Positions 1,961-35,646 of a DNA stretch of 37,345 nt are shown piece after piece (within the stretch, counting starts at the first letter, position 1; each line of letters begins with the position of its first letter). The position numbers were made by a program, and so were the translations under genes. Origin of the DNA: Verrucomicrobiales bacterium (GTDB lineage: Bacteria > Verrucomicrobiota > Verrucomicrobiia > Verrucomicrobiales > DEV007); the NCBI GenBank assembly GCA_047620505.1, contig JBLHKS010000051.1, positions 1-37,345 on the forward strand, read 5' to 3'. A model generated the notes under the pieces. That model worked only from the letters and a program-made list of their open reading frames with translations. It had not been told where the DNA came from and did no database searches.

Positions 1961-1964
<4 letters not shown>
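777..1964 (-). CDS. Secreted hypothetical protein with an N-terminal signal peptide and no recognised domain.
   Basis: 395-aa ORF. The N-terminus [21 protein letters not shown] is signal-peptide-like. The start overlaps the stop of the upstream DUF1501 gene by 4 bp (1961..1964). Confidence 0.6.
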
Positions 1965-3316
<1,352 letters not shown>

Positions 3317-8247: not shown

Positions 8248-8361
8248 GAATCGCCCATTTCCAACATCCGCTTCACTTGAAAGCCCCTCCATGCCGCTCT
8301 CGTGTATCGCGGTGAACCGCCAACTCCGGTTCGGGCCCCATTTTTAACGATCTCTAGAGGA

Positions 8362-11300: not shown

Positions 11301-13503
11301 GTTTCTTGCGACGCGTTTCAACTGCAACAAATGCCACGATCACCCGTTTGAGCGCTGGAATGTCGGCCAGTACTATGAAACGGCCTCGTTCTTCACGCAG
11401 ATCGGCCTGGCGCGGGATGCGAAGAATGCGCCTACCCAAAATCTTGGCGGAAGTGCAGTTGAGAACGCGAAACCGCTTTACGAAGTGATCTCCGACACGA
11501 CTGAAGGCGCGATTACGAATGTCGTGACTGGTGAGGAAGCTAAGCCTGTATTTCCTTACCCATCGAAGCTCGCTCAAGTCGCGTTCACCAATCCGGAAGC
11601 GCCGACGCGCCGAGAGCAGTTCGGTGCTTGGCTTACGAGTGGGGACAATGATTACTTCGCGATGAGTTACGCGAATCGGATTTGGGGATATTTGTTGGGA
11701 ACCGGGATTATCGAGCCGATCGACGATATTCGTGCGGGCAACCCACCGACGAATCCGGAACTTCTTCAGTACCTGACATCCGAATTTGTCGGGAGCGATT
11801 TCAATTCGCAGCACTTAATGAGATTGATCTGTAAATCTCGCGCTTACCAGCTTTCGATCCAGACGAATCGGTGGAACGAGGACGACCAGATTAACTTCGC
11901 TCATGCGAAAGCCCGTCGTCTGCCGGCCGAAGTTTTGTTCGACGCCGTGTTCTCGGTGACCGGTTCGCAGTCCAAAATTCCGGGTGCCCCGGCTGGCGCG
12001 CGTGCGGCTTCGCTGGCGGATGCGAAGATCGATTTGAAGAGCGGATTTCTCGCCAACCTCGGCCGTCCGGCTCGCGAAAGCGCCTGCGAGTGCGAGCGGA
12101 GCAACGACGTCCAGATGGGCGCGATCATGGCGTTCGTATCAGGGCCGACGATTGCCGAGGCCGTTGGTCAGCCCGGAAACGCGATCGAAAAGCTCGTCGC
12201 TGCGCAGCCGGACGATGCAAAAGTCGTCGAGGAACTTTATTTGCGGACGTTGTCTCGATCGGCTAAGCCCGAAGAAATTCAAACTGCTCTCGGCGCTCGC
12301 GATGAAATCAGAGCTGATCACGAAAAGTTACTCAAAATTGTAGCGGAACGCGAAGCTTGGTGGGTGCCGGTGAAGGCCGAACGCGAGGAAGCCCGGGTCA
12401 AACGGATCGGAGCAGCTGCTGGCGAGATTCAAGCTTACGTTCCGGAGTATACGAAGAAGAAAAACGAGGCTGAGGCGGCCCAGAAAGCGCGAATCACCGC
12501 TGCTGACAAGGGGCTTAAAGATTATCAGGCGGGCTTGCCCAAGATCGTGGCTGACGGAACGGCTGGGATCCAGGTGAGCGATCTCTGGACTCAGTGGACA
12601 GGCCTGGTTCCTAAGACGGTCGTTTCATCGAACGCCGCGATCAAACTGGAGGCTCAGGAGGGCGGCGCGCTGCTCGTGACCAGCCCACACGTTAAGGCGA
12701 ACGTCGATTACACGCTGACTTTCGATATTCCGGCTAAGCAAACGGTGACCGGCTTCAAGATCGACGCGTTGCCGAACAACAGTCTGGCTGGATTTGGCCC
12801 TGGGGTGAACCCGAACGGGAATTTCGTCGTGACCGAAGTGGAAGTTCAGACGTCGACGGCGAAGGAGCCCAAGAAGCTTGTCAAAGCGAAGTTCGTCGAC
12901 GCAAAAACTGAGCACATCCAAGACGGATTCAACGTTAAGGGCCTCTTTAACGGCAATCCGAACAACGACAAGAGCTGGGCAATCGCCGGAAAAGAACGCC
13001 AGCCGCATGCGGCGCGTTTGAAGCTGGAGAAGCCGCTTGTTCTGGAACAGGGCGGTCAGCTCGTGATCAAAATCTACAACCGATATGGCGGCGGCGACTA
13101 CCCACTTGGGCACTTCCGAATTTCCGCGACGACTTCGGCAAGACCGCTTGAAATCGGCCTACCCACAGAAGTAGCTCAAGCAGCCGCGACTGCGCCCGAG
13201 GGCAGGACGGAAACGGTTAACGCAGTGCTCGCGGCTTACTTCAAAGCGAACGACTTGGAATTGCTCAAGCGCGATCAGCTGCTGGTGAAAGAGCAGCGAC
13301 CGCTGCCGCGCGATCCGAGGATGATCGAGCTTGAAGCCGGGTTGAAAGTCGCCGAAACGCCGATCAAGCAGGATCCACCGCTTTTGCAGCTTCGTCAGGA
13401 TGCCGAGTATTCGGTGAAGCAGCTCGAGAACAGCCGCCTGACAGCAGCGCAGGACCTTGCTTGGGCGCTGATCAATAATCCGTCGTTTTTGTTTAACCGT
13501 TAG
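8362..13503 (+). CDS. Giant secreted multidomain protein: PSCyt cytochrome-c-like domain, WD40 beta-propeller, Ig-like segment, DUF1549, DUF1553 and a C-terminal beta-rich domain.
   Basis: The ORF spans 8302..13503 in the track. The likely start is the ATG at 8362, preceded by GAGG, which gives the signal peptide MMNSTLRFRLAVPFLALSLTSTGFAADE. Motifs present: CQGCHQPAKAKGD (PSCyt); WD40 repeats (FSPDGKLLAVAG, FSPDGTKIAVTGG, WSPDGKLVAFG, YSPDGKMIAASGQDGLIRL); FIRRVYLDLTGLPPS (DUF1549); NCNKCHDHPFERW (DUF1553). Confidence 0.8.
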   Translation: MMNSTLRFRLAVPFLALSLTSTGFAADEKSDSSGPVSYYEQIRPIFQASCQGCHQPAKAKGDYVMTQFQQLLKGGKTGDAAITPGKAEESSVVLRVKPEAGEDIMPPKGEKLNESEIALIERWISEGAKDDTPQNAVARYSLENPPSYVQAPIITSMDFSPDGKLLAVAGFHEVILLKADGSGQVARLIGLSEQIDTVKFSPDGTKIAVTGGLPERMGELQVWDVAKRELDLSLPMGFDTIYGASWSPDGKLVAFGMPDNTMRAVNSETGEQVVFMGGHNDWVLDTEFNKAGTHIISVGRDMSTKLTEVATQRLVDNLTSITPEALKGGIGAVVIHPSQDHILIGGSDGAPQIYRTKRETVRKIGDNANLIRKYPQMRGRIWSVAFRPDGKQFVAGSSLNGQGEIAIYKSEYDPAIPADVKKAMETARSRPDSKKGKEQQLVDAWQTKGVEEPIRIPVEVAIYAVAYSPDGKMIAASGQDGLIRLINPADGKIAKNVTPVEITAEKIAVDKFGEKDKADEITWQTEPVLSGEITKLDVSPKKITISGPARYQQLLVTAHYASGEQLDVTRMVAFEVSGELVEISKRGLAKPKRDGTGKLTVALGAKKVEIAVEVAGLAEPLHPYWITDINPVISRMGCNAGTCHGAKDGKAGFKLSLRGYDPVYDVRAFTDDIQSRRVNYASPDDSLMLLKTTGAVPHEGGQLAPQHSTYYDLVRSWISDGGQLELAAPRVKSIEVFPKNPVIQKIGSRQQFRVVATLTNGEIRDVTREAFVESGNADVSTHDNQAMLATIRRGEAPILARYEGAYAATTLTVMGDRKGFEWSEQPANNRIDELVASKWQRMKIEPSGLCDDSEFIRRVYLDLTGLPPSVDVVRAFLADKSPMQKKRDGLVDSLIGTGEFVDHWANKWADLLQVNSKFLGGSGASEFRAWIHEEVKANTPYDEFVYKIITATGSNKDNPPASYYKILREPDAIMENTTHLFLATRFNCNKCHDHPFERWNVGQYYETASFFTQIGLARDAKNAPTQNLGGSAVENAKPLYEVISDTTEGAITNVVTGEEAKPVFPYPSKLAQVAFTNPEAPTRREQFGAWLTSGDNDYFAMSYANRIWGYLLGTGIIEPIDDIRAGNPPTNPELLQYLTSEFVGSDFNSQHLMRLICKSRAYQLSIQTNRWNEDDQINFAHAKARRLPAEVLFDAVFSVTGSQSKIPGAPAGARAASLADAKIDLKSGFLANLGRPARESACECERSNDVQMGAIMAFVSGPTIAEAVGQPGNAIEKLVAAQPDDAKVVEELYLRTLSRSAKPEEIQTALGARDEIRADHEKLLKIVAEREAWWVPVKAEREEARVKRIGAAAGEIQAYVPEYTKKKNEAEAAQKARITAADKGLKDYQAGLPKIVADGTAGIQVSDLWTQWTGLVPKTVVSSNAAIKLEAQEGGALLVTSPHVKANVDYTLTFDIPAKQTVTGFKIDALPNNSLAGFGPGVNPNGNFVVTEVEVQTSTAKEPKKLVKAKFVDAKTEHIQDGFNVKGLFNGNPNNDKSWAIAGKERQPHAARLKLEKPLVLEQGGQLVIKIYNRYGGGDYPLGHFRISATTSARPLEIGLPTEVAQAAATAPEGRTETVNAVLAAYFKANDLELLKRDQLLVKEQRPLPRDPRMIELEAGLKVAETPIKQDPPLLQLRQDAEYSVKQLENSRLTAAQDLAWALINNPSFLFNR
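8566..8577. repeat. Exact copy of the palindrome CAGCAGCTGCTG.
   Basis: Lies inside the 1733-aa gene (FQQLLKG). Confidence 0.9.
10015..10026. repeat. Exact copy of the palindrome CAGCAGCTGCTG.
   Basis: Lies inside the 1733-aa gene (YQQLLVT). Confidence 0.9.
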
Positions 13504-15082: not shown

Positions 15083-16189
15083 ATGCCCGGCTTTTACGAA
15101 TTTTTCGCCGGGGGCGGAATGGCCCGATTGGGACTTGGGAAATCCTGGACCTGTCTCGCCGCGAACGATTTCAGCCCGAAAAAAGAAGCTGCCTATCGGG
15201 CGAACTGGGGCGATGCCGATTTTTTGCCAGGTTGCATCAGCCAGATCCGCACGGCTGATCTTCCGGGGGAGGCTGATCTCGCTTGGGCTTCGTTTCCTTG
15301 TCAGGACCTTTCGTTGGCCGGAAAAAGGCGCGGAATTTATTCGGAACGCAGCGGCGCTTTCTGGCCGTTCTGGGAATTGATACGTGAGCTGGAAGGGGAG
15401 GGGAGAATGCCGCCGGTGATCGCCCTGGAGAACGTGACCGGGATGCTGTCCGCGAACGGTGGGCGTGATTTTGCTGACGTCTGCACGGCGCTGGGTGAAG
15501 CCGGATTTCGCGTCGGCGCAGCTGTGATTGACGCGAGTCGATTCGTTCCGCAGTCGCGCAAACGAGTTTTCATCGTCGCGACGACCCGCCCGATCCCGGC
15601 TGAGATCGAGTCGTCGAGCTTCGATCCCGACTGGCATCCGGAAGCGATGCGGCGAGCAGCTGCTGGCCTCGAAAACTGGTTCTGGCTGGCTCTGAGGGCC
15701 CCGCGAAACCGAGTGGCGGCGCTTGCAGAATTGATCGATGCAGAAGATTCGACCGATACTCCTTGGAAATCAGAATCGGATCTCGAACGCCTGCTTTCGA
15801 TGATGTCCAAGCTGAATCGCGAAAAAATCCAGATCGCAAAGCGCGAAGGGAAGAGGATAGTGGGCACGCTCTACAAACGGACGCGGCCAGACCCGAATGG
15901 TGGTCGAATTCAACGAGCCGAAGTCCGCTTTGATATCGCCGGTTGCCTGCGGACGCCAGTGGGCGGGTCGAGCCGGCAGACGATCGTCGTCATCGAAAAC
16001 GGAGAGGTCAGCGCCCGGCTGCTTTCCGCGCGCGAAGCGGCTCGCCTGATGGGAATTCCGGACGGCTATCGGCTTCCAGAGCGATACAACGATGCCTACC
16101 ACCTTGCCGGGGATGGGGTCGTGGTGCCGGTGGTTCGGTATCTGGCGAAGCGGGTGATCGAGCCAATTTTAGAATGCGAACCGATCTGA
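15083..16189 (+). CDS. DNA (cytosine-5)-methyltransferase, Dcm-like. It appears to be an orphan.
   Basis: 368 aa. Motif I is FYEFFAGGGMARLGL. Motif IV is SFPCQDLSLAGKRRG. Motif VI is ENVTGML. Motif VIII is QSRKRVFIVA. The C-terminus has LSAREAARLMGIPDGYRL...GDGVVVPVV. No adjacent restriction endonuclease or vsr-like ORF was seen. Confidence 0.85.
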   Translation: MPGFYEFFAGGGMARLGLGKSWTCLAANDFSPKKEAAYRANWGDADFLPGCISQIRTADLPGEADLAWASFPCQDLSLAGKRRGIYSERSGAFWPFWELIRELEGEGRMPPVIALENVTGMLSANGGRDFADVCTALGEAGFRVGAAVIDASRFVPQSRKRVFIVATTRPIPAEIESSSFDPDWHPEAMRRAAAGLENWFWLALRAPRNRVAALAELIDAEDSTDTPWKSESDLERLLSMMSKLNREKIQIAKREGKRIVGTLYKRTRPDPNGGRIQRAEVRFDIAGCLRTPVGGSSRQTIVVIENGEVSARLLSAREAARLMGIPDGYRLPERYNDAYHLAGDGVVVPVVRYLAKRVIEPILECEPI

Positions 16190-19770: not shown

Positions 19771-20436
19771 GTGACGTTCATCGCCGAAGAGAACCAGATT
19801 CATATCGACATTCCGGATTCAGTTCGGACTCTCGCTTCATTCCGCAATTGGGCGCGTTCGAGCGATTTCCCGGCTGAAGGAAGGATCTGTTATCTCGGAC
19901 AAGTCTGGATCGATATGAGCAAGGAGCAGCTGTTTTCGCACAATGGAATTAAGACGGAGTTCGGAGCGGTTTTGCACACTCAATCAAAAAACGAACGAAG
20001 CGGTCGCTATTTTTGCGACGGAGCCCGGCTTAGCAACGCCGTCGCCGACCTCTCTGCGGTTCCAGATGGAATGTTCGTCTCCTGGCAGACGCTTGAAGCC
20101 GGCGGCGTTCAGCTGATCGAGGGTGCCGGGAGTGGATTTGTTGAGTTGGAAGGTTCGCCTGACATGACGCTTGAAGCGGTGAGCGACAGCAGCGTGGAAA
20201 AAGACGCCGTCGAGCTGCGCGATCTCTACTGGAAGGCCGGCGTCACTGAATATTGGTTGATCGACGCCCGCGATCAGCCGCCCCAATTCACGATTCTTCG
20301 TTGGGAACCGGACGGCTACGTCGCTGTTGAGCCTACGGACGGCTGGCGACGTTCCGATGTGTTTGCCAAGGAATTCAAATTGGATCAAACCGATGATCCT
20401 GGCGGAAACCCGGAATTTCGGCTCGAATCGCGCTGA
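19771..20436 (+). CDS. Uma2-family (DUF820) putative endonuclease.
   Basis: 221 aa with a GTG start. The C-terminal core AVELRDLYWKAGVTEYWLIDARD matches the Uma2 EYW(L/I)(I/V)D motif. Confidence 0.65.
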   Translation: MTFIAEENQIHIDIPDSVRTLASFRNWARSSDFPAEGRICYLGQVWIDMSKEQLFSHNGIKTEFGAVLHTQSKNERSGRYFCDGARLSNAVADLSAVPDGMFVSWQTLEAGGVQLIEGAGSGFVELEGSPDMTLEAVSDSSVEKDAVELRDLYWKAGVTEYWLIDARDQPPQFTILRWEPDGYVAVEPTDGWRRSDVFAKEFKLDQTDDPGGNPEFRLESR

Positions 20437-22880: not shown

Positions 22881-23684
22881 ATGCCCAACACATCTGAGAT
22901 CTCAAACATGGCGGTGTTCTGCGATTTCGAGAACATCGCTCTCGGCGTGAACGAGGTAGGGTTCTCCAAGTTTCAGATCGACAAAGTCCTCGAGCGATTG
23001 CTCGTGAAAGGCAACATCGTCGTCAAAAAGGCTTACTGCGATTGGTCAAGATACGAATCCTTCAAACGCTCGATGCACGAGGCCGCTTTCGAGCTAATCG
23101 ACATCCCGCACGTTCGGCAAAGCGGAAAAAACTCGGCCGATATCCGCATGGTTGTCGATGCACTCGACCTCTGCTACACCAAAGCTCATGTTGACGCCTT
23201 CGTTGTTGTCAGCGGCGATTCGGACTTCTCTCCGCTGGTCAGTAAACTTCGTGAGAACAACAAAGTCGTTATCGGAGTCGGCGTGAAACACTCCACCTCG
23301 GACCTGTTGGTTGCGAATTGCGACGAGTTCATTTTCTACGATGAATTGGTCGAGAAAAAGCCTCGTCGAGCCGCAAAGAAGGCTGGCAAACCGACCACGA
23401 AAAAGTCTGCCAGAACCAAATCAGCTGAAAACATCGACGACGACGGAATCGAGCTCGTCGTGTCGACGATCGACAGTCTGATCGATGAAATCGGCGGTCG
23501 GAGTTCGCTCTGGGGCTCGATGGTCAAGCAGGCGATCAAACGTCAGCGTCCCGGCTTCAACGAACGCGCTCACGGCTTCAAGTCCTTCAACGCGATGCTC
23601 GAAGTCGCGCGAGATCGCGGCCTGATCGCGCTTAGCCCAGACGAAAAATCTGGCGGCTACGTGATCGAAACGGCGGGTGATTGA
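22881..23684 (+). CDS. NYN-domain ribonuclease-like protein with a C-terminal OST-HTH/LOTUS domain.
   Basis: 267 aa. The NYN core is AVFCDFENI...KKAYCDW...NSADIRMVVDALDL...VVVSGDSDFSPLVSKLRENNKVVIGVG. The OST-HTH-like C-terminus is LVVSTIDSLIDEIGGRSSLWGSMVKQAIKRQRPGFNERAHGFKSFNAMLEVARDRGLIAL. The start may instead be the internal Met at 22908. Confidence 0.75.
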   Translation: MPNTSEISNMAVFCDFENIALGVNEVGFSKFQIDKVLERLLVKGNIVVKKAYCDWSRYESFKRSMHEAAFELIDIPHVRQSGKNSADIRMVVDALDLCYTKAHVDAFVVVSGDSDFSPLVSKLRENNKVVIGVGVKHSTSDLLVANCDEFIFYDELVEKKPRRAAKKAGKPTTKKSARTKSAENIDDDGIELVVSTIDSLIDEIGGRSSLWGSMVKQAIKRQRPGFNERAHGFKSFNAMLEVARDRGLIALSPDEKSGGYVIETAGD

Positions 23685-23689
23685 CCATC

Positions 23690-25150
23690 TCAGGTTCCGC
23701 AAAAAGTCGCCTCCACAATCTCGCCGGCGCTTGGAGCGGCCTCGAATTCGGCAAACTCGCTTTTCTCCGCAAACGGCTCCTTCAGGACTTCGTTCAGCCT
23801 GTGAAACAGCTCGAAATCTCCCTGGTTCCCGGTGCGGATCGCTTCCTCAATTTGATGATTGCGCGGAATGAACACCGGATTCGACCGCCGCATCAACGCA
23901 AGCGCCTCGTCTTGATCACTGCCCGCCATCCGCGCTCGCCATCGCTCCAACCAAGCAACAATCGCTTCCGGCTGATTGAACAGTTTGATCACTTCCGCGT
24001 CTTCAGAACTTCCGTGAGCGCTCGTTAGATGTCGAAAAACCAAAGTGAAATCGGCCTCGCCTTCAGCCATCGCTTTGAGCAGAGACTCCACGAGTTGCCA
24101 GTCGTCTTTTTCATCGCCCTTCAATCCGATCTTCGCCGTTAGTCGTTCTCGGAGCGCGCTTTGGTGCAGATCGGGAAACCGCTCAAGCTCGGCCTCTGCA
24201 ATTGCTACGGATCGATCCGGATTGTCGTCCAGCAACGGAAGCAGGGTCTCCGCAAGCCGCGTCAGGTTCCATTGAGCGATTGGTCCCTGATTCGCAAAAG
24301 CATAACGCCCATTCTGATCGATTGAGCTGAATTTTTTCGCAGGATCGTAGTCATCGAGGAAAGCACACGGCCCGAAGTCGATCGTCTCGCCTGAGACGTT
24401 CATGTTGTCCGTGTTCATCACTCCATGGATGAAACCGAACTGCATCCAGTGGGCAATCAGGTCGGCCTGACGACCAATCACGCCGCTTAGCAGAGCTTGG
24501 TAAGAGTTCTCGGCTTCCCTCGCGTCGGGAAAATGACGGTCGATCACGTAATCGGCGAGAATTCGGAGATTCTCTTTGTCATCCCGAGCTGCAAACCATT
24601 GAAAAGTCCCAATTCGAATGTGAGAACGCGCGACCCGGGTGAAAATTCCGCCAGGCTGCATTCCCTCACGCGCGACGTGCTCTCCGCTCGTCACAGCCGC
24701 CAGCGCCCGAGTCGTCGGAACCCCAAGAGCTGCCATCGCTTCAGAAACGATATACTCGCGCAAAACGGGCCCTAACGCGGATCTTCCGTCGCCTCTCCGT
24801 GAAAACGGAGTCGGCCCCGAGCCCTTCAACTGGATGTCATACCGGACGCCATCTTTTCCTATGACCTCGCCAAGCAGAATCGCCCGACCGTCTCCCAATT
24901 GGGGCGAGAAGCCGCCAAACTGATGTCCCGAGTAAGCCATCGCCAATGGATCAGAACCTTCGGGTGTCTGATTTCCTGAAAGCGCCGCGAGACCTTCCAG
25001 CGATTCCAGCTTCTCCGCGTCTAGTCCAAGCTCTGCGGCCAGCGAATGATTAACCCGAATGATTGTCGGATTCGTGACGGGAGTTGGTTGGACCGGAGCA
25101 TAAAAAGCCTCCGGAAGCCGAGCATAACTGTTATCGAATGGAAAGAGCAC
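23690..25150 (-). CDS. selO: Protein adenylyltransferase (AMPylase) SelO/YdiU, UPF0061 family.
   Basis: 486 aa with a GTG start. It has the N-terminal FDNSYARLPEAFY and the kinase-like core GHQFGGFSPQLGDGRAILLGE...QLKGSGPTPFSRRGDGRSALGPVLREYIVSEAM. Its start codon directly abuts the stop of the upstream giant gene (25150/25151). Confidence 0.9.
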   Translation of the reverse strand: MLFPFDNSYARLPEAFYAPVQPTPVTNPTIIRVNHSLAAELGLDAEKLESLEGLAALSGNQTPEGSDPLAMAYSGHQFGGFSPQLGDGRAILLGEVIGKDGVRYDIQLKGSGPTPFSRRGDGRSALGPVLREYIVSEAMAALGVPTTRALAAVTSGEHVAREGMQPGGIFTRVARSHIRIGTFQWFAARDDKENLRILADYVIDRHFPDAREAENSYQALLSGVIGRQADLIAHWMQFGFIHGVMNTDNMNVSGETIDFGPCAFLDDYDPAKKFSSIDQNGRYAFANQGPIAQWNLTRLAETLLPLLDDNPDRSVAIAEAELERFPDLHQSALRERLTAKIGLKGDEKDDWQLVESLLKAMAEGEADFTLVFRHLTSAHGSSEDAEVIKLFNQPEAIVAWLERWRARMAGSDQDEALALMRRSNPVFIPRNHQIEEAIRTGNQGDFELFHRLNEVLKEPFAEKSEFAEFEAAPSAGEIVEATFCGT

Positions 25151-28100
25151 TCAGTCTCCTTGCCTGACTTCGCCTTCGATATCCACTGGTAATTTATCCG
25201 CGCCCTTAGCTTTCTTAATCTTAATCTTCTTTTTCTTCGGCGCGCCAGCAGCTGCTGACTTCGATTTGGACGCTTCCTGAACGGGAACGACCTTGATTTC
25301 CACTTCCACTGGCACAGCGCGAAGTCCGGAAATCACCTTTTCCAGCTTTGCGACGGTCTCGTCTGTCAGCCCAGTCGATTGCAAGGATTCGCCGATCCGG
25401 CTCAAACCGTCGTTGAATTCGCTCAGCTGAGCTACCACGCGCGTTACCGGGTCGGACTCGTCGCCACCCGCCAGCAGTTGGTTTTTGTTGAATGCCTTGT
25501 GGATTTCCGCCCATCGAGTCGCCTCGGTGTCGGTCAAAATCCCTTCAAGCTCCTTGAATTTGAGTAGATTCGCTTCAGCGCCCGTAGTGAGCGTCTGACT
25601 CTCGTTTTCGTAGTGCGATACGATGAGATTCTCGACTTCCTCGTCCGTCATGATCGCCAATACTTTTTCAGCGATCCGGCTCATGTTACGATAACTGCCT
25701 TGTAGCTTGAACGAAGGCTCCGTTCGATACGCGTCTTCCATCGCGGCAGAGCGAATGTATTCCAGATTCACGCGTAGAATCGTATCGCGAACACGCATCA
25801 ATTTTTTGGTCACCGAAACAAGCTCGTCGATCTCTTCTACCGAATAGTTGCCTTCAAAATCCGCGCCTTCCTGTGATCCCGTCTCCGCGATCTTCATCAC
25901 CGCATAAATATCTTTTTGGCTTCGGCTTGAGAGCTTGCTCAGCACCGAATTACTGGTTAGCGAGTTCTCAATATAACTATCTTTGAACGAACCTTCGTTC
26001 TCTCCAATAATATCGCCAAGATTGTAGGTATCGGCGCGGTTGGCGAGCATATCAGGAATCTGGAATCGCCCGCCGCTCTCGGTATAAGGGTTGCCAGCCA
26101 TCACCACTGCGACTTTCTTCCCGCGCAGATCGTAAGTTCTGGCTTTGCCTTCCCAGACGCCCTCAATTTTGCGTTGAGCGTCGCAGAGCGAAATGAATTT
26201 CTGAAGAAACTCAGGATTGCAGTGCTGAATGTCGTCAACGTAGATCATTACGTTGTCGCCCATTTCTAAGGCGAAGTTCAACTTGTTGACTTCGGCGCGC
26301 GCGCTGGCGTTTGGCGCTTCTGTCGGGTCAAGCGAGGTGACTTGATGGCCAATCGCTGGCCCGTTGATTTTCACGAACGTGATCCCCAATCGGTTGGCCA
26401 CGTATTCCATCAGTGTGGTTTTGCCGTAGCCTGGCGGGGAAACGAGCAACAGCATGCCCATTCGATCGGTTCGCGTATCGGCTCCAGCGGTTCCGAGCTG
26501 TTTGGCCAGATTGTCGCCGATCATCGGAAGGTAAACTTCGTCGAGCAACCGGTTGCGCACGAAGGCGCTCATAACAGTTGGTTTAAACTCGTCCAACCTC
26601 ATTGACTCACGCGCCTCATCGATCAGGCGAGATTTCAATTCATGGTAGGCTTCAAAGCGAGGAACAACCTCCGATTCGAAATTACTCAAACGAGTCAGAA
26701 ATTCGTTGTAGTCCAACAAATATCCGCCTCCAGCAATTCGCGAATGATCGCCCAGTAAACCATCCAGCTCCGCGCGGGTCGCCGCATCGACGACTTCGCG
26801 TTGCTCGAATCCACCACGCATTTCGTGCGCCGCCGCCTCAACCACGACGTCTTCCGTGACGTCGCCACCAGCGCTTCCTCGCATCCAGTCGGAAGTCACC
26901 TGGAAACGCCCAGCCGCGTCGTCTTCGAGTTCGCTTACAGCCTCCTGAAATTTCGACTTTGACCGCGTTGAAGCGAGTTTCCCGTGAAACTCCTTCACCA
27001 CACGTGCAGCCTCTGCGGAAACGACCACGCCACCTTCTGACGAAAGCTCATCCACCAGATAATCGGCTGCTCCGGACTTATGGCGCGCGTCAAATAGCCC
27101 AGTCTGCTCAAGAAATACACCAAGATGCTCCGCCAACTCTTCTTCGTAATCAGCATCGAGGTTCCCGCCGGCGCCTCCAAAAGCATCGCGCATTTGGCCG
27201 AACGATTTCAGTTTGGCGGCAAGCCGCTGCTTTTCGGCTCCCTCAAACCATTCCCAAAACACGAGACCGCACGCCCGCGAGGTCATTGAATGCCTTAGAC
27301 GCCCGGCCCTTTGATGAATCGGGAGTAACGCACTCAAGAGTCGCTCGGTATCGTGGTCGTTGACTCCTTTGACGTAGCCCTCAGCGTAGCGAGATGACAT
27401 GAACTCTTGAATCATTTCGATCGAAACCGCCTCGCTATCAGCATAACGTTTTTCACTGAGCATCTGAAAGGCGAGATACTCAGACCGGTATACATTTTGA
27501 TTTTCGGAAATGATTTCCTGATCCCAAACGGAGCGAGTTTGTAGAAACTCTGGGTCAACGATCGTTTCATAAAAGGCAGTGCCTGCCAGATGAAACGCCA
27601 TTTCGCCGTCCCGCGGAATTACAGTGAGATCGAGTTCGCGTGTATTGACTGAGAACTGGTGATTTCCTAAGCGAATGACATCTTTGCCGCCGATGAACAG
27701 TTCCTTGCGATCTTTGAGCTGCCGCACCGCGTCCTCTCGCATCGTCTTCAGACGCGTCTGGACATCGCCCGATTTGACGGTGTCGCCCAACTCCGTGAGA
27801 TTTTCGACAATGTCACGAACCTTGTCGACCATCAGGTCGCTGGCAAAGTAGCTGTTGATCTCGGCGATCTCTTCAAACCCGGACACGCGCCGCACAATAC
27901 CGCCTAAAATCCGGTCGGCGGACTTTAGCAAAGTGTCGGCTCGCTTGTTTCGAGACTCCAGCAGCTGCTGCTTGCGGCTTTCGAACGCGCCGTAAATTTC
28001 TTCCCGTTTTTCGCCGAGCTGAGCGACGTAATCATCAAACTCGCTGAATTTACCTTCCAGCTCTTCGATCTGCACCATTAGGCGCGTAAGCTGTTCGTCG

Positions 28101-30229
28101 CACTTTTCTGGCGTATCGCAAACATCTAAGGTGTTGACCACTGTTTGAGCGATCAACTTCATCTGCGCCCCGAATTGGCCTTCCGCTTCGACTCGTCCGA
28201 GCTCCTGCCGGCGCTTGCGAACCTGCGCTTGAACCTGGTTCAAACTCGCATAAATGCCCGAGATCGCCTCAGTGATCTTCGTCGCTTCCGTCGCGTCTGT
28301 GATCTGGAGATTCCCGACGATATCGATCAGCATCTCCAATTCGCCGCCAGCCTCGGCCAAAGCGTCCGAAACTGCGGTGGCTTCAGTAACTTTGGTGAGT
28401 TTTGCCGCCGCATCCCTTTGCTCGGTGATCTTCGCTTGATAAGGATCGAGCGCCTCGGGCTTCAGGAGGAAACTAACGCAACTCTGGGACGTCTTTTCTG
28501 TCGCCTCAGAAATTTCTGCTTCTAGTTTATCAACTAAGTCGTTATCAATATAGCGGAGGTCCCGCAACGAAATTACCTCGCCGCGCGCCCCTCGCAGATC
28601 CGCCAAGTGATGAACAAATCCGAGAATGTCATCCGGAGCTTGGTGATCCGCGGCTGACGTTGCCTTGCGGGCTCGATCGTGTGCGCGTTTGGTTTCCTCC
28701 TTTGTCGTCTTGCGAATCCGTTGAACCTTATCGAATTCCCCAATCGCAGCCTGGGCAGCCTGGTTGACCGCCATCAACGGCGTTTTCAGCTCGGCGGTCT
28801 CGGAGTTGCCAACCCAGAAATAGCTATCGACGATATCCCCGGTTTTCTTGACCAGATCGACATAGAGATCGGCGTAAGTATCGTCCTTGCCGATCAGATT
28901 GAGAACCTCATGGCACTCCGCCATGCCGCGCACAATATCGGCGTTGCCTATTTTAAAGAGATAGCTGTCGGTCTGCGCTGGCTCGCTGGCACCTTCCGTC
29001 GTAAACGGAGTTTGCCAGACCTGAATCACGTGATGTTTCTGCGGCTGATCCTCCGTGCGAAAATAGAACAGCTCACCATCCGGGAAAACGCAATAGCCGT
29101 TGCAGATGATCGGCGTATCCAGCGTTTGCGCGATCAAGTTGTAGGCCATCAACGTGTAGGTCCCACTGGCGCGGTTGTAGAAAACGTACAACGTGTCCTC
29201 GCCGTTCGATGAAGCAATTCGACGCTCGAATCGCATGTCGGTTAGCCCGCTGTCGAAAACCTTTGTCTCGCCGGTTTGAAGGAGATAGCCATTGGAAACC
29301 ACGATCCCGTGATCGTCCGGAAGCAGAACACACGAATCCGCTATCGTATCGATTCGAGTAACCTTCTTCGTCTTCTCGTTAAAAGCGAGATATCGGAATT
29401 CCTGCTCTTGATAAGGCCGAACTTTGATCAATATCAAGCTGCCAACAATCGTGTAGAGAATTTCGGCATCGTCCAGGGTCTGATCGACATTGTCGACAGG
29501 CTCGGCATAGATCCCTTCGCCCGTTTCCGTGTTGTCTTCGATCTTTACAGTTAAATCGCCTCCGACAGTCTCGATGAAAACGCGGTCCTCGATCGAAATG
29601 TGCGGATGATCGCCACCGCGCTGCATGTCGCGGTGTGCACGCTTCCATTCGAACTCGTGCTGTGGCGGAAACTTGTATTCGTGATCGAAGCGATTGCCCA
29701 GATACTCAAGACGACCATCGCCAGGCATCAGGAATTTGAACGCCTTAATGTCTTCAACAGAGGCACCGGTGCGGAAAGCCACGTAAAGATGGACGCCCAG
29801 GACCATGAACTTCACGAAAATCGTTTCGCGATAGTATTTGTAGAGATAGGCAAACTCCTCTGCAAATCTCTCCTCGCCTTCAATCTCCCAAGTCGTCGGA
29901 ACAAAAGTGTGTCCGGCGTTTTCGTAATGATACGCCGAAAATACATCGGCAAGGTCGGTTGTAGCCTTGAGCCCAAGTTGAACGTTATACCCGAAGAGGA
30001 ATTTTCCGCCGCCGATCGACACCATGTCGCGCGGCGTGCAGTTGTGGGCGGTCGTTACCCGCTCGGTCGCGACGAGGCTGCTTTCGATCGCGCCGAAAAC
30101 CGCCTGCCGATCCCGGTTGAGCGTCCCAAGACGCTCGCGCAAGTCGGAGGCGTGGGTGTTGAGCCGATTGCGGATTACCTCGTAGGCTCCGCCTTCCAGC
30201 TTTGCGCCAGCTGTTGATTCGTCAGGCAA
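25151..30229 (-). CDS. Giant (1692 aa) multidomain protein with a single MoxR/dynein-type AAA+ ATPase module. It has an N-terminal beta-rich domain and a long central coiled-coil/helical region.
   Basis: Walker A is LLLVSPPGYGKTTLMEYVANRLG. Walker B is NVMIYVDDIQHC. The sensor-1-like element is VAVVMAGNPYT (the A-x-N-P pattern of the MoxR/McrB/dynein clade). The N-terminal ~430 aa have no recognised motif. There are long E/K/Q-rich helical stretches, and the tail is lysine-rich (KKKKIKIKKAK). No second P-loop is present. Confidence 0.8.
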   Translation of the reverse strand: MPDESTAGAKLEGGAYEVIRNRLNTHASDLRERLGTLNRDRQAVFGAIESSLVATERVTTAHNCTPRDMVSIGGGKFLFGYNVQLGLKATTDLADVFSAYHYENAGHTFVPTTWEIEGEERFAEEFAYLYKYYRETIFVKFMVLGVHLYVAFRTGASVEDIKAFKFLMPGDGRLEYLGNRFDHEYKFPPQHEFEWKRAHRDMQRGGDHPHISIEDRVFIETVGGDLTVKIEDNTETGEGIYAEPVDNVDQTLDDAEILYTIVGSLILIKVRPYQEQEFRYLAFNEKTKKVTRIDTIADSCVLLPDDHGIVVSNGYLLQTGETKVFDSGLTDMRFERRIASSNGEDTLYVFYNRASGTYTLMAYNLIAQTLDTPIICNGYCVFPDGELFYFRTEDQPQKHHVIQVWQTPFTTEGASEPAQTDSYLFKIGNADIVRGMAECHEVLNLIGKDDTYADLYVDLVKKTGDIVDSYFWVGNSETAELKTPLMAVNQAAQAAIGEFDKVQRIRKTTKEETKRAHDRARKATSAADHQAPDDILGFVHHLADLRGARGEVISLRDLRYIDNDLVDKLEAEISEATEKTSQSCVSFLLKPEALDPYQAKITEQRDAAAKLTKVTEATAVSDALAEAGGELEMLIDIVGNLQITDATEATKITEAISGIYASLNQVQAQVRKRRQELGRVEAEGQFGAQMKLIAQTVVNTLDVCDTPEKCDEQLTRLMVQIEELEGKFSEFDDYVAQLGEKREEIYGAFESRKQQLLESRNKRADTLLKSADRILGGIVRRVSGFEEIAEINSYFASDLMVDKVRDIVENLTELGDTVKSGDVQTRLKTMREDAVRQLKDRKELFIGGKDVIRLGNHQFSVNTRELDLTVIPRDGEMAFHLAGTAFYETIVDPEFLQTRSVWDQEIISENQNVYRSEYLAFQMLSEKRYADSEAVSIEMIQEFMSSRYAEGYVKGVNDHDTERLLSALLPIHQRAGRLRHSMTSRACGLVFWEWFEGAEKQRLAAKLKSFGQMRDAFGGAGGNLDADYEEELAEHLGVFLEQTGLFDARHKSGAADYLVDELSSEGGVVVSAEAARVVKEFHGKLASTRSKSKFQEAVSELEDDAAGRFQVTSDWMRGSAGGDVTEDVVVEAAAHEMRGGFEQREVVDAATRAELDGLLGDHSRIAGGGYLLDYNEFLTRLSNFESEVVPRFEAYHELKSRLIDEARESMRLDEFKPTVMSAFVRNRLLDEVYLPMIGDNLAKQLGTAGADTRTDRMGMLLLVSPPGYGKTTLMEYVANRLGITFVKINGPAIGHQVTSLDPTEAPNASARAEVNKLNFALEMGDNVMIYVDDIQHCNPEFLQKFISLCDAQRKIEGVWEGKARTYDLRGKKVAVVMAGNPYTESGGRFQIPDMLANRADTYNLGDIIGENEGSFKDSYIENSLTSNSVLSKLSSRSQKDIYAVMKIAETGSQEGADFEGNYSVEEIDELVSVTKKLMRVRDTILRVNLEYIRSAAMEDAYRTEPSFKLQGSYRNMSRIAEKVLAIMTDEEVENLIVSHYENESQTLTTGAEANLLKFKELEGILTDTEATRWAEIHKAFNKNQLLAGGDESDPVTRVVAQLSEFNDGLSRIGESLQSTGLTDETVAKLEKVISGLRAVPVEVEIKVVPVQEASKSKSAAAGAPKKKKIKIKKAKGADKLPVDIEGEVRQGD
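25246..25257. repeat. Exact copy of the palindrome CAGCAGCTGCTG.
   Basis: Lies in the C-terminal tail of the giant AAA+ gene (SAAAGA on the minus strand). Confidence 0.9.
27959..27970. repeat. Exact copy of the palindrome CAGCAGCTGCTG.
   Basis: Lies inside the giant AAA+ gene (KQQLLES). Confidence 0.9.
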
Positions 30230-30231
30230 AT

Positions 30232-32301
30232 TCAGAGGACCTTGTTAGCCTTTTGGTCGGCGACGCCGAGGCGCTGAGCAGCACCCAGAAGTCCGTTCAG
30301 CGTGCGACCGGTTGTCGAGTCGTTGTTGGCAGCCAGCATTTTGCCAAGAACCGCAGCCACGGTCAGATTCTTTAAGTCCTCACTGCTGATTCCGAACATA
30401 TCGACCCATTCCCGGATCTGCGCCTTGAATGCGTCCGGATCGCCGCGGAATAACGTATCTTTGATCTCGGTTAGGGTATCCGAATTGTCGAGCGCGCGGT
30501 CAACTTGCTTGCCAGCCGTTATGGCTTGAGTAATCTTGTCGAAGAACGTGCTTTCGCCGCCCACGATATCGATGTTTGCGGTTTTGAGGGCTGCCGCAAC
30601 CACGGTAGCTTGTTCGGCTGCGATATCCTTTTGAGCTTCGATCTCAGCGAGGTCGATCTGGCGTTCCTTGTCGAGCTTGAGCTTGAATTCTTCGTGGCCT
30701 TGACCGGCCTCTTCGAATAGCTTCATGGCGCCGGCCTTCTCGGTGATTCCGTCGGCATCAGCAGTTGCTTTGGCTCGAATTCCCTCCGCCTCCGCTCTTG
30801 CTTGTGCCTCTGTTCCTTCAGCGTTTGCGTTTGCTTTAGCGCGGATGACTTGAGATTCACCTAGCCCAGCAGCTGCTGTCTCGGCAGTGACACCCTCGGC
30901 GAGCATTTTCTTCGCTGCCGACTCTTTCTCGGCTGATTCCTGGTTCGCTTCAGCCGTGATCACGATCTCCTGCGCATGAAGCTCGGCCGATTGCTTGCTG
31001 GCCTCAGCCGCTTTCACATGCTCATAGGCTTCTTCGTCTGCCTTCAACTGTGCAGATTCCTTTTGTGCTTCAGCGTCGCGAACTTTGACCAACATCGCCT
31101 CCTGCGCCGTCTTCTCAGCCAGGGTAATCGCGACTTGCTTCTCTCGATCCGCGCCCGCGAAGGCCTCGGTATCTTTGATCTTCTCTTGCTCGATCACGAC
31201 CATCTTTTCGACCGCGACGCGCTCTTTGATCACGTCCTGAATGTTTTTCTTCTCGATTTCGACGGCTTTCTCCTTTTCGATGGACTTGAGAGTCGTTACC
31301 CGCTCACGATCGATCTCCTCCAATTTCCGATCCCTCTCAACACGCTCAAGTTCGACCCCATCGGTTCGTTCTTTGTTCCGCAGCGCGACAATCACCTGGC
31401 GCTCTTTGTTTTGTTCAGCGATCTGAATTTCCTCATCAGCTGCGATCCGAGCTTGCTCGGCTCGTTGACGGTTTTCCTCTTGGACCTTCTTCGTCTCGGC
31501 CTGCTCTCGCGCCTGAACTGAATCGACTTCCCGCTGTTGCTTCGCTTCGGTTTCTGCCAGCTGGCGTTCTAACTCTAGAATCGCTTCACGAGCTTCAACG
31601 TCCTGCTGTTTGATGACTTTTTCCTTATCTCGCTGAATGTGGTTAGCGAGTTTGGCTTGCGTTGCCGTTCTCTCTGTAATCTTCTTGATGCCTTCCGAAT
31701 CGAGGATGTTGTTCGGGTCTAAGGAATCCAGCGGAGTCTGCTCAAGGTCGTCAATCGCGGCGTCCTCCAGCGAGAAACCATTCAAGTCAGTTCCGATCAG
31801 TTTGATGATTTCATCGCGGAAACTGTCGCGCTCTTCGTAGAGTTCGGTGAAATCGAAGCGCTTTCCGATTGTCTTCAAGGCTTCCGAGAATTTGGCTCCG
31901 AAAAGCGCCTCAAGTTCCTTTTGATCCGAGGCGCGAACGCAGCCAATCGATTGCGCTACTTTTTTGACGTCGGCGTCCGTTGGATTGACCCTGACAAAGA
32001 AGGCGACTTTGATATCTGCCCTCATATTGTCTTTGCAGATCAGGCCGTTATCGCCTGCTCGGTCGATCTCGATTCGTTTTACCGAGATATTGATCATTTC
32101 GGCCTGATGGAATACGGGAATGACGACTTTTCCGGTAAATGACACCTGTGTTCCGCCCTGGCCGGTGCGCACCAGCGCGAGTCCTTGCGGGACTTTGCGA
32201 TAGCACTTTACGACCAGCACAAACAATCCTACGACCAAGATTAGGAATACGACGACAATGACGACGCCGATGCCGCCTAGCATTTCAATTAGTTCACTCA
32301 T
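30232..32301 (-). CDS. Flotillin-family SPFH/band-7 protein (YqiK/FloT-like) with an extended coiled-coil C-terminus.
   Basis: 689 aa. It has an N-terminal TM helix (VVIVVVFLILVVGLFVLVV), an SPFH core (VRTGQGGTQVSFTGKVVIPVFHQAEMINISVKRIEI...DIKVAFFVRV) and a long Glu/Ala/Lys-rich coiled-coil flotillin tail. It overlaps the upstream NfeD-like gene by 8 bp and ends 2 bp before the giant AAA+ gene. Confidence 0.85.
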   Translation of the reverse strand: MSELIEMLGGIGVVIVVVFLILVVGLFVLVVKCYRKVPQGLALVRTGQGGTQVSFTGKVVIPVFHQAEMINISVKRIEIDRAGDNGLICKDNMRADIKVAFFVRVNPTDADVKKVAQSIGCVRASDQKELEALFGAKFSEALKTIGKRFDFTELYEERDSFRDEIIKLIGTDLNGFSLEDAAIDDLEQTPLDSLDPNNILDSEGIKKITERTATQAKLANHIQRDKEKVIKQQDVEAREAILELERQLAETEAKQQREVDSVQAREQAETKKVQEENRQRAEQARIAADEEIQIAEQNKERQVIVALRNKERTDGVELERVERDRKLEEIDRERVTTLKSIEKEKAVEIEKKNIQDVIKERVAVEKMVVIEQEKIKDTEAFAGADREKQVAITLAEKTAQEAMLVKVRDAEAQKESAQLKADEEAYEHVKAAEASKQSAELHAQEIVITAEANQESAEKESAAKKMLAEGVTAETAAAGLGESQVIRAKANANAEGTEAQARAEAEGIRAKATADADGITEKAGAMKLFEEAGQGHEEFKLKLDKERQIDLAEIEAQKDIAAEQATVVAAALKTANIDIVGGESTFFDKITQAITAGKQVDRALDNSDTLTEIKDTLFRGDPDAFKAQIREWVDMFGISSEDLKNLTVAAVLGKMLAANNDSTTGRTLNGLLGAAQRLGVADQKANKVL
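30867..30878. repeat. Exact copy of the palindrome CAGCAGCTGCTG.
   Basis: Lies inside the flotillin gene (TAAAGLG). Confidence 0.9.
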
Positions 32302-32998
32302 TCGGTTCGATCTGGTTCGGTTGGTTTATTTGGATAAGTTTTTCCACTGCCGCGGATTTACGAACGGAAAAAAAGCCGGTTTCAGGATCTTCAGAAACCA
32401 CTAGGGCCTCATCGCCCTTGATCAATGACTCTTGATCTTCGGTTGCCCTGACATTGATCAGAAAGGTGGCACCGTCGCGTTCGACCTCTGCTTGCCCGCT
32501 GTCCGGGGTCACTTTCAATGACCGAATGGTGCAGGCACGACCCACGATTGGCTCATGGGTATCTCCATCTGCGTTCAAAGCCACGAAGAGACGCTTCAGA
32601 GGAGCGGTAGTGATTTTTGTGAGGATCGCGCTGATAAACAGGTTTGCGGTGAAGATCGCTGCAGTGATGAGAATCAGGCCACCGCCATTAAATATATAAT
32701 TCCCAAGGATCGAAATGGACCAAAGGCAGAGTACAAGGACGCTAATAACTATAAGCGCGGGAACCTGGCCAAAATTCAAGAATCGAAGGACGGCCATTCC
32801 GATACCGCCTCCGCCGGTTCCGGCGGTATCAAGGTCTGGATCCACATCGGCGTCGACGTCCGCATCAACATCGAAATCGAGACTGTCGACGCCGATCGCT
32901 CCCAAGATAACGATCAACCAGTAAACAACTACGGCCCCGAGAAGAATCGTAAGGGGTAGGTTCTGGCTTTTCAGGGCTTCTGTCAGGATCAAAGTCAT
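32294..32998 (-). CDS. NfeD/YqiJ-like membrane protein, the usual flotillin operon partner.
   Basis: 234 aa. It has N-terminal TM helices and an acidic DVDADVDADVDPDLD repeat. A central hydrophobic block is followed by a C-terminal soluble beta-rich domain (IVGRACTIRSLKVTPDSGQAEVERDGATFLINVRA), consistent with an NfeD OB-fold. Gene order matches yqiJ-yqiK / nfeD-floT operons. Confidence 0.6.
   Translation of the reverse strand: MTLILTEALKSQNLPLTILLGAVVVYWLIVILGAIGVDSLDFDVDADVDADVDPDLDTAGTGGGGIGMAVLRFLNFGQVPALIVISVLVLCLWSISILGNYIFNGGGLILITAAIFTANLFISAILTKITTAPLKRLFVALNADGDTHEPIVGRACTIRSLKVTPDSGQAEVERDGATFLINVRATEDQESLIKGDEALVVSEDPETGFFSVRKSAAVEKLIQINQPNQIEPNE

Positions 32999-33066: not shown

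Positions 33067-35646
<2,580 letters not shown>

Follow-up and report, generated by a model that had tools for sequence, protein, structure and literature searches.

Flotillins and NfeD proteins are widespread in bacteria. YqiJ and YuaF are NfeD homologues that are paired with SPFH2 flotillins (Hinderhofer et al. 2009; PMC2636767), and a recent comparative-genomics study has described an operon in which a YqiJ/YuaF gene, a band-7/flotillin gene and a gene for a beta-propeller/coiled-coil AAA+ protein stand together, with or without a CesT/Tir-PspA dyad (Ravi et al. 2024, mSystems 9:e00847-23; PMC11237479). According to the same study, the 'abbreviated' operons that do not carry the CesT/Tir-PspA dyad are the more widely distributed form (PMC11237479). 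In this study we have analysed a stretch of 37,345 nucleotides from a Verrucomicrobiales bacterium (assembly GCA_047620505.1, contig JBLHKS010000051.1, positions 1 to 37,345), hereafter called the window, in which the genes for a YqiJ-like membrane protein, a YqiK-type flotillin, a giant ATPase and a SelO protein follow one another on the minus strand. With a probability that we put at about 0.72, we consider that the first three of these genes are an instance of a deeply conserved three-gene module acting in membrane stress or membrane remodelling.

The window locus closely resembles the operon of Ravi et al. (PMC11237479), since the same three architectures are found in both, namely a YqiJ-like protein with three transmembrane (TM) segments, a flotillin with a TM segment, an SPFH domain and a coiled coil, and a propeller/coiled-coil AAA+ protein. 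It corresponds to the 'abbreviated' form, an equivalence that rests on matching architecture and layout, and it differs in having no CesT/Tir-PspA dyad and in being flanked by a ligA gene upstream and a selO gene downstream, neither of which is mentioned in the paper. An earlier note on this DNA, made from the letters alone, had proposed the locus as a candidate novel system. That claim cannot be upheld, because the same operon is already described by Ravi et al. 2024 (PMC11237479), and the window is better regarded as a new member of a known operon that has been noted in one comparative-genomics paper. Our literature search returned no experimental work on the giant ATPase.

Evidence for the three-gene module comes from its conservation. 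We took the 80 best loci of the giant gene at species level, which comprise 24 from Verrucomicrobiota, 34 from Bacteroidota, 11 from Planctomycetota, four from Desulfobacterota, three from Clostridia, one each from Kiritimatiellota and Omnitrophota and two unclassified, and searched their open reading frames (ORFs) with the window proteins. Upstream counts refer to the 58 loci with at least 3.5 kb 5' of the giant gene and downstream counts to the 66 loci with at least 1.6 kb 3' of it. In 55 of the 58 loci, which come from at least seven phyla, the giant gene is preceded on its own strand by a flotillin gene, and 52 of them keep the full order of YqiJ-like gene, flotillin gene and giant gene on one strand; three loci have the flotillin but no YqiJ-like gene. 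These counts bear out the earlier suggestion that the YqiJ/NfeD-flotillin pair has a fixed partner in the giant AAA+ protein. The gaps between the NfeD-family gene and the flotillin gene are mostly of -8 to +30 nucleotides, and those between the flotillin gene and the giant gene reach 2.4 kb in Bacteroidota. Even two of the most distant giants, at 30-32% identity in the N-terminal domain, keep the order of a YqiJ-like gene (205-212 residues), a flotillin gene (647-673 residues) and a giant gene. Downstream of the giant gene, no conserved gene was found among the examined loci.

For the giant itself, the search returned more than 3112 homologues, and relatives are encoded in at least 568 species-representative genomes. 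The family of its N-terminal DUF3686 domain is small: when 1.84 billion proteins are clustered at 50%, it has 730 representatives. The full-length DUF3686 giants are always of 1600-2036 residues, and their identity to the window protein tracks phylogeny, being 53-60% in the Planctomycetes-Verrucomicrobia-Chlamydiae (PVC) group, 46-52% in Bacteroidota and 46-49% in Clostridia.

In the window itself, the earlier reading of four tightly packed minus-strand genes is confirmed at exactly the coordinates it gave. Reading of the letters shows that the yqiJ-like and flotillin genes overlap by 8 nucleotides, with the ATG of the flotillin gene inside the end of the yqiJ-like gene (...CCGAATGAGTGA), that the stop codon of the flotillin gene is followed by 'AT' and then by the TTG of the giant gene, giving a gap of 2 nucleotides, and that the TGA of the giant gene abuts the GTG of selO with a gap of 0 nucleotides. 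The TTG and GTG starts are credible, being the sole candidates close to the 5' ends. In the giant ORF, no further ATG, GTG or TTG occurs before codon 30, and residue 1 of the protein falls in line with a near-invariant M1 in the homologues. The SelO profile match begins at residue 4-5, and independent gene calls give the same layout in a relative. A consensus scan found no internal promoter or terminator signals above shuffled expectation. Judged by this spacing, co-transcription of the four genes is plausible, and ligA, which the earlier note had left out of the unit and which lies 68 nucleotides upstream of the yqiJ-like gene on the same strand, could share the transcript with the block.

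The domain calls of the earlier note are also correct, but those for the flotillin and the NfeD/YqiJ protein could be secured only by profile-profile comparison, for which we made family alignments from the related loci and compared them by hhalign with YqiK and YqiJ of E. coli MG1655. By direct sequence search, the 689-residue protein has no match in Pfam, NCBIfam or PDB; the Pfam models Band_7 and Flot do not match it even at E<=10, and their gathering thresholds are not reached. Within the flotillin family, a Band_7 match appears in one of 16 members (E=2.6e-4). The family profile (A2), by comparison, aligns with E. coli YqiK over 382 columns with 100% probability, E=6.8e-40 and 34% identity, and the source databases label the protein flotillin/YqiK. 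The flotillin belongs to a divergent subfamily that single-model hidden Markov models miss. Its hydropathy indicates one TM segment, a hydrophobic stretch within residues 1-38. After it come the SPFH domain and a coiled coil of great length, and the C-terminal region is conserved in a way specific to the family. Against the PDB, the family profile gives a weak match to the coiled coil of QmcA only. In a Foldseek search with the predicted structure of the flotillin, SPFH proteins occupy every one of the top 13 places, but at E>=0.17 these matches are non-significant and are used here as weak support.

The 234-residue protein was assigned in the same way. The Pfam model YqiJ_N matches it with E=7.6e-4 and 20.1 bits, under the cutoff of 23, and in its family a YqiJ_N match is found in five of 18 members and an NfeD match in one of 18. 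The family profile (A4) aligns with E. coli YqiJ with 96.5% probability and E=9.6e-10 over 187 columns, spanning residues 14-223 against 4-204 and so covering the C-terminal OB-like beta domain. Kyte-Doolittle hydropathy places three TM segments in the protein (approximately residues 12-42, 69-103 and 104-129), which also has an acidic loop with a D-x-D repeat and a C-terminal beta (OB-like) domain. The loop between the first and second TM segments (window 32820-32880, about residues 40-60) is an alternating run of Asp (DFDVDADVDADVDPDLD), and each of the 18 homologues in the alignment, which represent several phyla, has such a loop, though of variable length (A4 columns 55-100). Such a loop may bind cations.

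Along the giant ATPase, the DUF3686 N-terminal domain is followed by a coiled coil with DUF7902, a variable linker and a single AAA+ module, and hydropathy indicates no TM segment. Pfam recognizes DUF3686 with 605.5 bits (residues 29-471) and DUF7902 with 86.6 bits (residues 592-676), both above their cutoffs, and at residues 1260-1383 the model AAA with 32.1 bits, above cutoff, and AAA_5 with 27.6 bits; the AAA+ module as a whole spans about residues 1247-1400. The N-terminal domain is a divergent beta-propeller that follows a long helix, in agreement with the propeller stated by Ravi et al. 2024. When the window protein is aligned with 74 full-length homologues, 246 positions are at least 97% conserved, and conservation peaks in the AAA+ region (0.81-0.89). 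The Walker A motif SPPGYGKTT (1264-1272), the Walker B motif YVDDIQH (1330-1336; window 26231-26251), the sensor-1-like motif MAGNP (N1380) and R1398 are all conserved at this level in the 75 sequences, which come from at least seven phyla. This points to very strong purifying selection on the ATPase motifs, and we take the conserved Walker A, Walker B and sensor-like motifs as a sign that the enzyme is probably active. The Walker B motif has Asp-Asp in place of Asp-Glu; because the Asp at D1333, where the canonical catalytic Glu is replaced, is at least 97% conserved, it is a trait of the family and not a degenerate site. Matches in the PDB to p97/VCP, Rix7 and RuvB are confined to the Walker A region. 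The giant also contains GNPYTESGGRFQIPDMLANRA, which may resemble the MoxR/AAA_5 motif.

In the yqiJ-yqiK locus of E. coli and the yuaF-floT locus of B. subtilis, homologues of the first two operon genes stand in the same order and encode proteins of the same membrane topology. The E. coli locus, however, has no giant ATPase, and sibD/ibsD follow yqiK. The window flotillin is about 135 residues longer than YqiK, its conserved C-terminal region does not align with YqiK, and it escapes Band_7. Other systems offer analogies. HflK/C-FtsH combines an SPFH oligomer with an AAA+ partner and QmcA-YbbJ an SPFH protein with an NfeD partner, and these complexes (PDB 7vhq, 9cz2, 8z5g) are the top, although non-significant, fold matches of the flotillin model. 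FtsH is a membrane-anchored AAA+ protease of another family, whereas the giant of the window is a soluble protein in which a propeller and a coiled coil, but no protease domain, accompany the AAA+ module; the likeness of the triad to both complexes is one of analogy only. The Vps4/ESCRT-III system and the AAA+ proteins associated with PspA likewise join a membrane-remodelling polymer to an AAA+ ATPase, and PspA is linked to the triad in Bacteroidota. Unlike Vps4, the giant has no MIT or Vps4-type domain, its similarity to the classic clade of AAA+ proteins is limited to Walker A, and the window has no PspA.

A link to membrane stress comes from PspA. In Bacteroidota, a PspA_IM30 gene lies directly upstream of the yqiJ-like gene in 17 of 34 loci and a CesT_Tir_1 gene in 15 of 34, and the full five-gene form, CesT/Tir-PspA together with the triad, is reproduced in our Bacteroidota loci. 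Of the roles that the earlier note had guessed at, stress response or membrane remodelling is most likely, by analogy and in view of this linkage, while the conflict or defence role that it offered beside them is not supported. We propose that the coiled coil of the flotillin would drive its oligomerisation, giving a cage or microdomain that lines the inner membrane on its cytoplasmic side, and that YqiJ-like subunits would dock on this scaffold via their OB-like domain, as modelled on the solved SPFH-NfeD complex QmcA-YbbJ. The giant ATPase would oligomerise via its AAA+ module and dock via its propeller and coiled coil. When the envelope or membrane is under stress, it would use the energy of ATP for the assembly, disassembly or remodelling of the scaffold or of the scaffold's clients.

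Several points weigh against this interpretation. Three of the 58 loci (L034, L047 and L053) have no flotillin gene within 7-10 kb upstream of the giant gene, and no YqiJ-like gene was found in them either. Among the 19 remaining main ORFs of the window, Pfam detects no PspA or CesT/Tir domain, and because the window has neither, the link to the phage-shock-protein (PSP) system is indirect for this locus. The mechanism of the triad is drawn by analogy alone, from HflK/C-FtsH and Vps4/ESCRT-III-PspA. By hhalign, the AAA+ module of the giant aligns with RavA, RuvB and FtsH of E. coli around Walker A/B only, so that the protein may either thread substrates or work in the manner of a MoxR-type chaperone, and with an Asp-Asp Walker B the catalytic behaviour may be unusual. 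The AlphaFold2 model of the flotillin, which shows a TM segment, a beta/alpha part and a near-continuous helix at 202-574, is of low confidence (pLDDT 61.5). Finally, the gap of 0 nucleotides before selO implies that SelO is co-expressed in this lineage, which leaves room for a functional use of it.

The coordinates of the operon and of the other features of the window are collected in Table 1. Outside the operon, the window is mostly of a housekeeping kind typical of verrucomicrobia and planctomycetes. It includes genes for large planctomycete-type proteins, namely the two PSCyt/PSD proteins and the DUF1552 protein. The C5 methylase and Uma2 genes lie about 3-8 kb from the end of the operon and adjoin neither each other nor the operon.

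Table 1. Features of the 37,345-nucleotide window, with the operon and the domains of the giant ATPase first.
Feature	Coordinates	Strand	Size and start	Remarks
yqiJ-like gene	32294..32998	-	234 aa, ATG start	NfeD-family membrane protein
yqiK-type flotillin gene	30232..32301	-	689 aa, ATG start	
giant soluble ATPase gene	25151..30229	-	1692 aa, TTG start	
DUF3686 N-terminal domain of giant ATPase	28817..30145	-	aa 29-471	divergent beta-propeller after long helix
AAA+ core of giant ATPase	26000..26572	-	aa ~1220-1410	single module
selO/ydiU gene	23690..25150	-	486 aa, GTG start	protein adenylyltransferase by homology
ligA (NAD-dependent DNA ligase)	33067..35382	-	771 aa	Pfam DNA_ligase_aden, OB, ZBD, HHH, BRCT
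NYN gene	22881..23684	+		convergent; bounds the four-gene block downstream
Uma2-family gene	19771-20436	+		putative restriction endonuclease-like
C5 cytosine DNA methylase	15083-16189	+		
PSCyt1+WD40 propeller+PSCyt2+PSD1 protein	8302-13503	+	1733 aa	
PSCyt/PSD1-5 protein	3331-5757	-	808 aa	
DUF1552 (HXXSHH) protein	1961-3316	-		

Around the related triads, other genes recur in particular lineages. In both of the most divergent triads examined (30-32% identity in the N-terminal domain), a TelA gene (PF05816, toxic-anion resistance) is the first or second gene after the giant (L093:12001-13221, plus strand; L094:12502-13608, minus strand), and TelA may be a further membrane-stress partner. A gene for a PD-(D/E)XK_3 protein of 124 residues stands between the flotillin and giant genes in five Verrucomicrobiota loci (L003, L008, L009, L028 and L044; L044:2287-2661), and a DMP19-like gene takes this position in Pontibacter (L038:8618-9247). 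Upstream of the operon, a divergent regulator with HTH_3 and Peptidase_S24 domains (LexA/CI-like) is found in 15 of 34 Bacteroidota loci (e.g. L045:3873-4652, minus strand), and a divergent Phage_CP76/CII-like gene for a protein of 159-167 residues in about seven to eight PVC loci (e.g. L017:6483-6962 and L086:4616-5119, both minus strand). In the window, ligA occupies the position of the divergent regulator.

The gene that follows the giant in the window is a recent neighbour of the triad in this lineage. The earlier note had counted SelO as a fourth component, with a scaffold that would recruit the giant together with a protein-AMPylating enzyme. On such a model the four genes would form one integrated system, and the targets of AMPylation by SelO would be the three triad proteins or clients of theirs. 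With a gap of 0 nucleotides, selO is very probably co-transcribed with the giant gene and perhaps translationally coupled to it, and SelO appears to be catalytically intact, as its sequence matches the YdiU family over its full length (Pfam SelO E=9.6e-117; NCBIfam NF000658, 562 bits against a cutoff of 431) and the HGVMNTDN and DFG-like motifs are visible in it. The junction is also kept in a relative, since selO stands with the same gap of 0 nucleotides beside a 77%-identical giant (L083/L084), but this is the sole other case, and there the neighbourhood, with ligA upstream and NYN and FAD/halogenase genes downstream, is wholly syntenic with the window. Because the synteny extends over the whole neighbourhood, this relative and the window represent one evolutionary event and not independent evidence. 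The gene-neighbourhood check that the earlier note had suggested thus gives a divided answer, for the homologues of the giant are found near a flotillin gene (55/58) and a YqiJ-like gene (52/58) but in none of the 66 species-level loci does selO adjoin the giant gene. It is absent beside the closest homologue of the giant (79% identity), where a gene for a PQQ/beta-propeller protein of 1020 residues (L085:7874-10936) has 47 nucleotides in common with the giant gene at the 3' end of the latter, beside a 63%-identical giant, where a carbonic-anhydrase gene faces the giant gene, and in Sulfuriroseicoccus, where carotenoid genes take its place. Synteny appears to break at the immediate 3' flank of the giant gene.

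SelO orthologues at 70-76% identity are themselves abundant in Planctomycetota and Verrucomicrobiota, and neither of two 73%-identical ones has a flotillin or giant gene in the 8 kb around it, their neighbours being SelU or PSCyt/PSD genes. We found no paper linking SelO with flotillin in our literature search. An integrated four-gene system is therefore unlikely, and SelO is, by these comparisons, a lineage-specific neighbour and not a fixed partner. Both selO and ligA are housekeeping genes; they have come to lie beside the triad in this Verrucomicrobiales lineage, where they are probably co-transcribed with it without belonging to the machine. Other features of SelO orthologues were also observed. 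The identity of the window SelO to those of Planctomycetota (70-76%) is above that of the giant ATPase (53-55%), in one genome selO comes directly after a gene for a rhodanese/SelU (tRNA 2-selenouridine synthase-like) protein (L097:6733-7860), and the PSCyt/PSD and DUF1552 families of the window also adjoin SelO orthologues in L095/L096.

A narrower proposal is that SelO has been captured into the operon in this lineage, where it would AMPylate or UMPylate the flotillin, the YqiJ-like protein or the giant ATPase. We regard this as distinctly unlikely. If it were true, the capture would couple redox or ATP stress to membrane-microdomain remodelling, and it would be the first case of nucleotidylation controlling a bacterial SPFH scaffold.

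In place of a role in membrane stress, the triad might serve in conflict or against phages, with an ATP-driven effector brought in by the flotillin scaffold, a reading that we hold to be very unlikely. PADLOC does return weak matches on the giant, to LmuB (E=2.4e-6) over the coiled coil at 499-875 and to IetA and mad8 at the P-loop, but these are generic coiled-coil and Walker A matches, and the other three proteins have none. The divergent regulators of the related loci are of phage type, HTH_3+Peptidase_S24 in Bacteroidota and CII-like in Verrucomicrobiota, and some loci carry the small PD-(D/E)XK or DMP19-like genes between flotillin and giant, which could suggest conflict; the triad proteins themselves, however, contain no nuclease, protease or toxin domain. 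Defence genes are fast-evolving and patchy in distribution, whereas the identity of the giant falls with phylogenetic distance and its architecture is rigid. No defence island lies beside the operon in the window, the C5 methylase and Uma2 genes being all that is found, and the triad is linked to the PspA/CesT envelope-stress system. With no significant match to a PADLOC model and no adjoining defence island, the defence reading was rejected.

Least of all do we favour a DNA-repair machine, which is very unlikely although the Pfam description of DUF3686 and the NCBI product name 'DNA repair ATPase', the neighbouring ligA on the same strand, the S24/LexA-like regulator of Bacteroidota loci and the weak matches to the RuvB P-loop would all point that way, since no DNA-binding or nuclease domain is detected, the resemblance to RuvB is confined to some 45 residues at Walker A, and the invariant partners of the giant are two membrane proteins. 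As a member of the module ligA was rejected, because it adjoins the triad in none of the 80 loci and, besides the window, only in the relative L083/L084. The name 'DNA repair ATPase' thus appears unsupported; it probably derives from coiled-coil similarity to SMC/RecN-type proteins, as in the LmuB match at 499-875.

In summary, the window locus most probably carries a further copy of the three-gene membrane module of a YqiJ-like protein, a YqiK-type flotillin and a giant ATPase. To what has been described before, our census adds the numbers for the linkage, its persistence down to 30% identity and the finding that the name 'DNA repair ATPase' is probably wrong, and its practical message is that SelO is not to be counted as a component of the system. 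The triad remains a worthwhile target for experiments, as a giant ATPase that is conserved at 46-60% identity across phyla, and that almost always stands beside one subfamily of flotillins, offers a handle on the energy-dependent step of these scaffolds.

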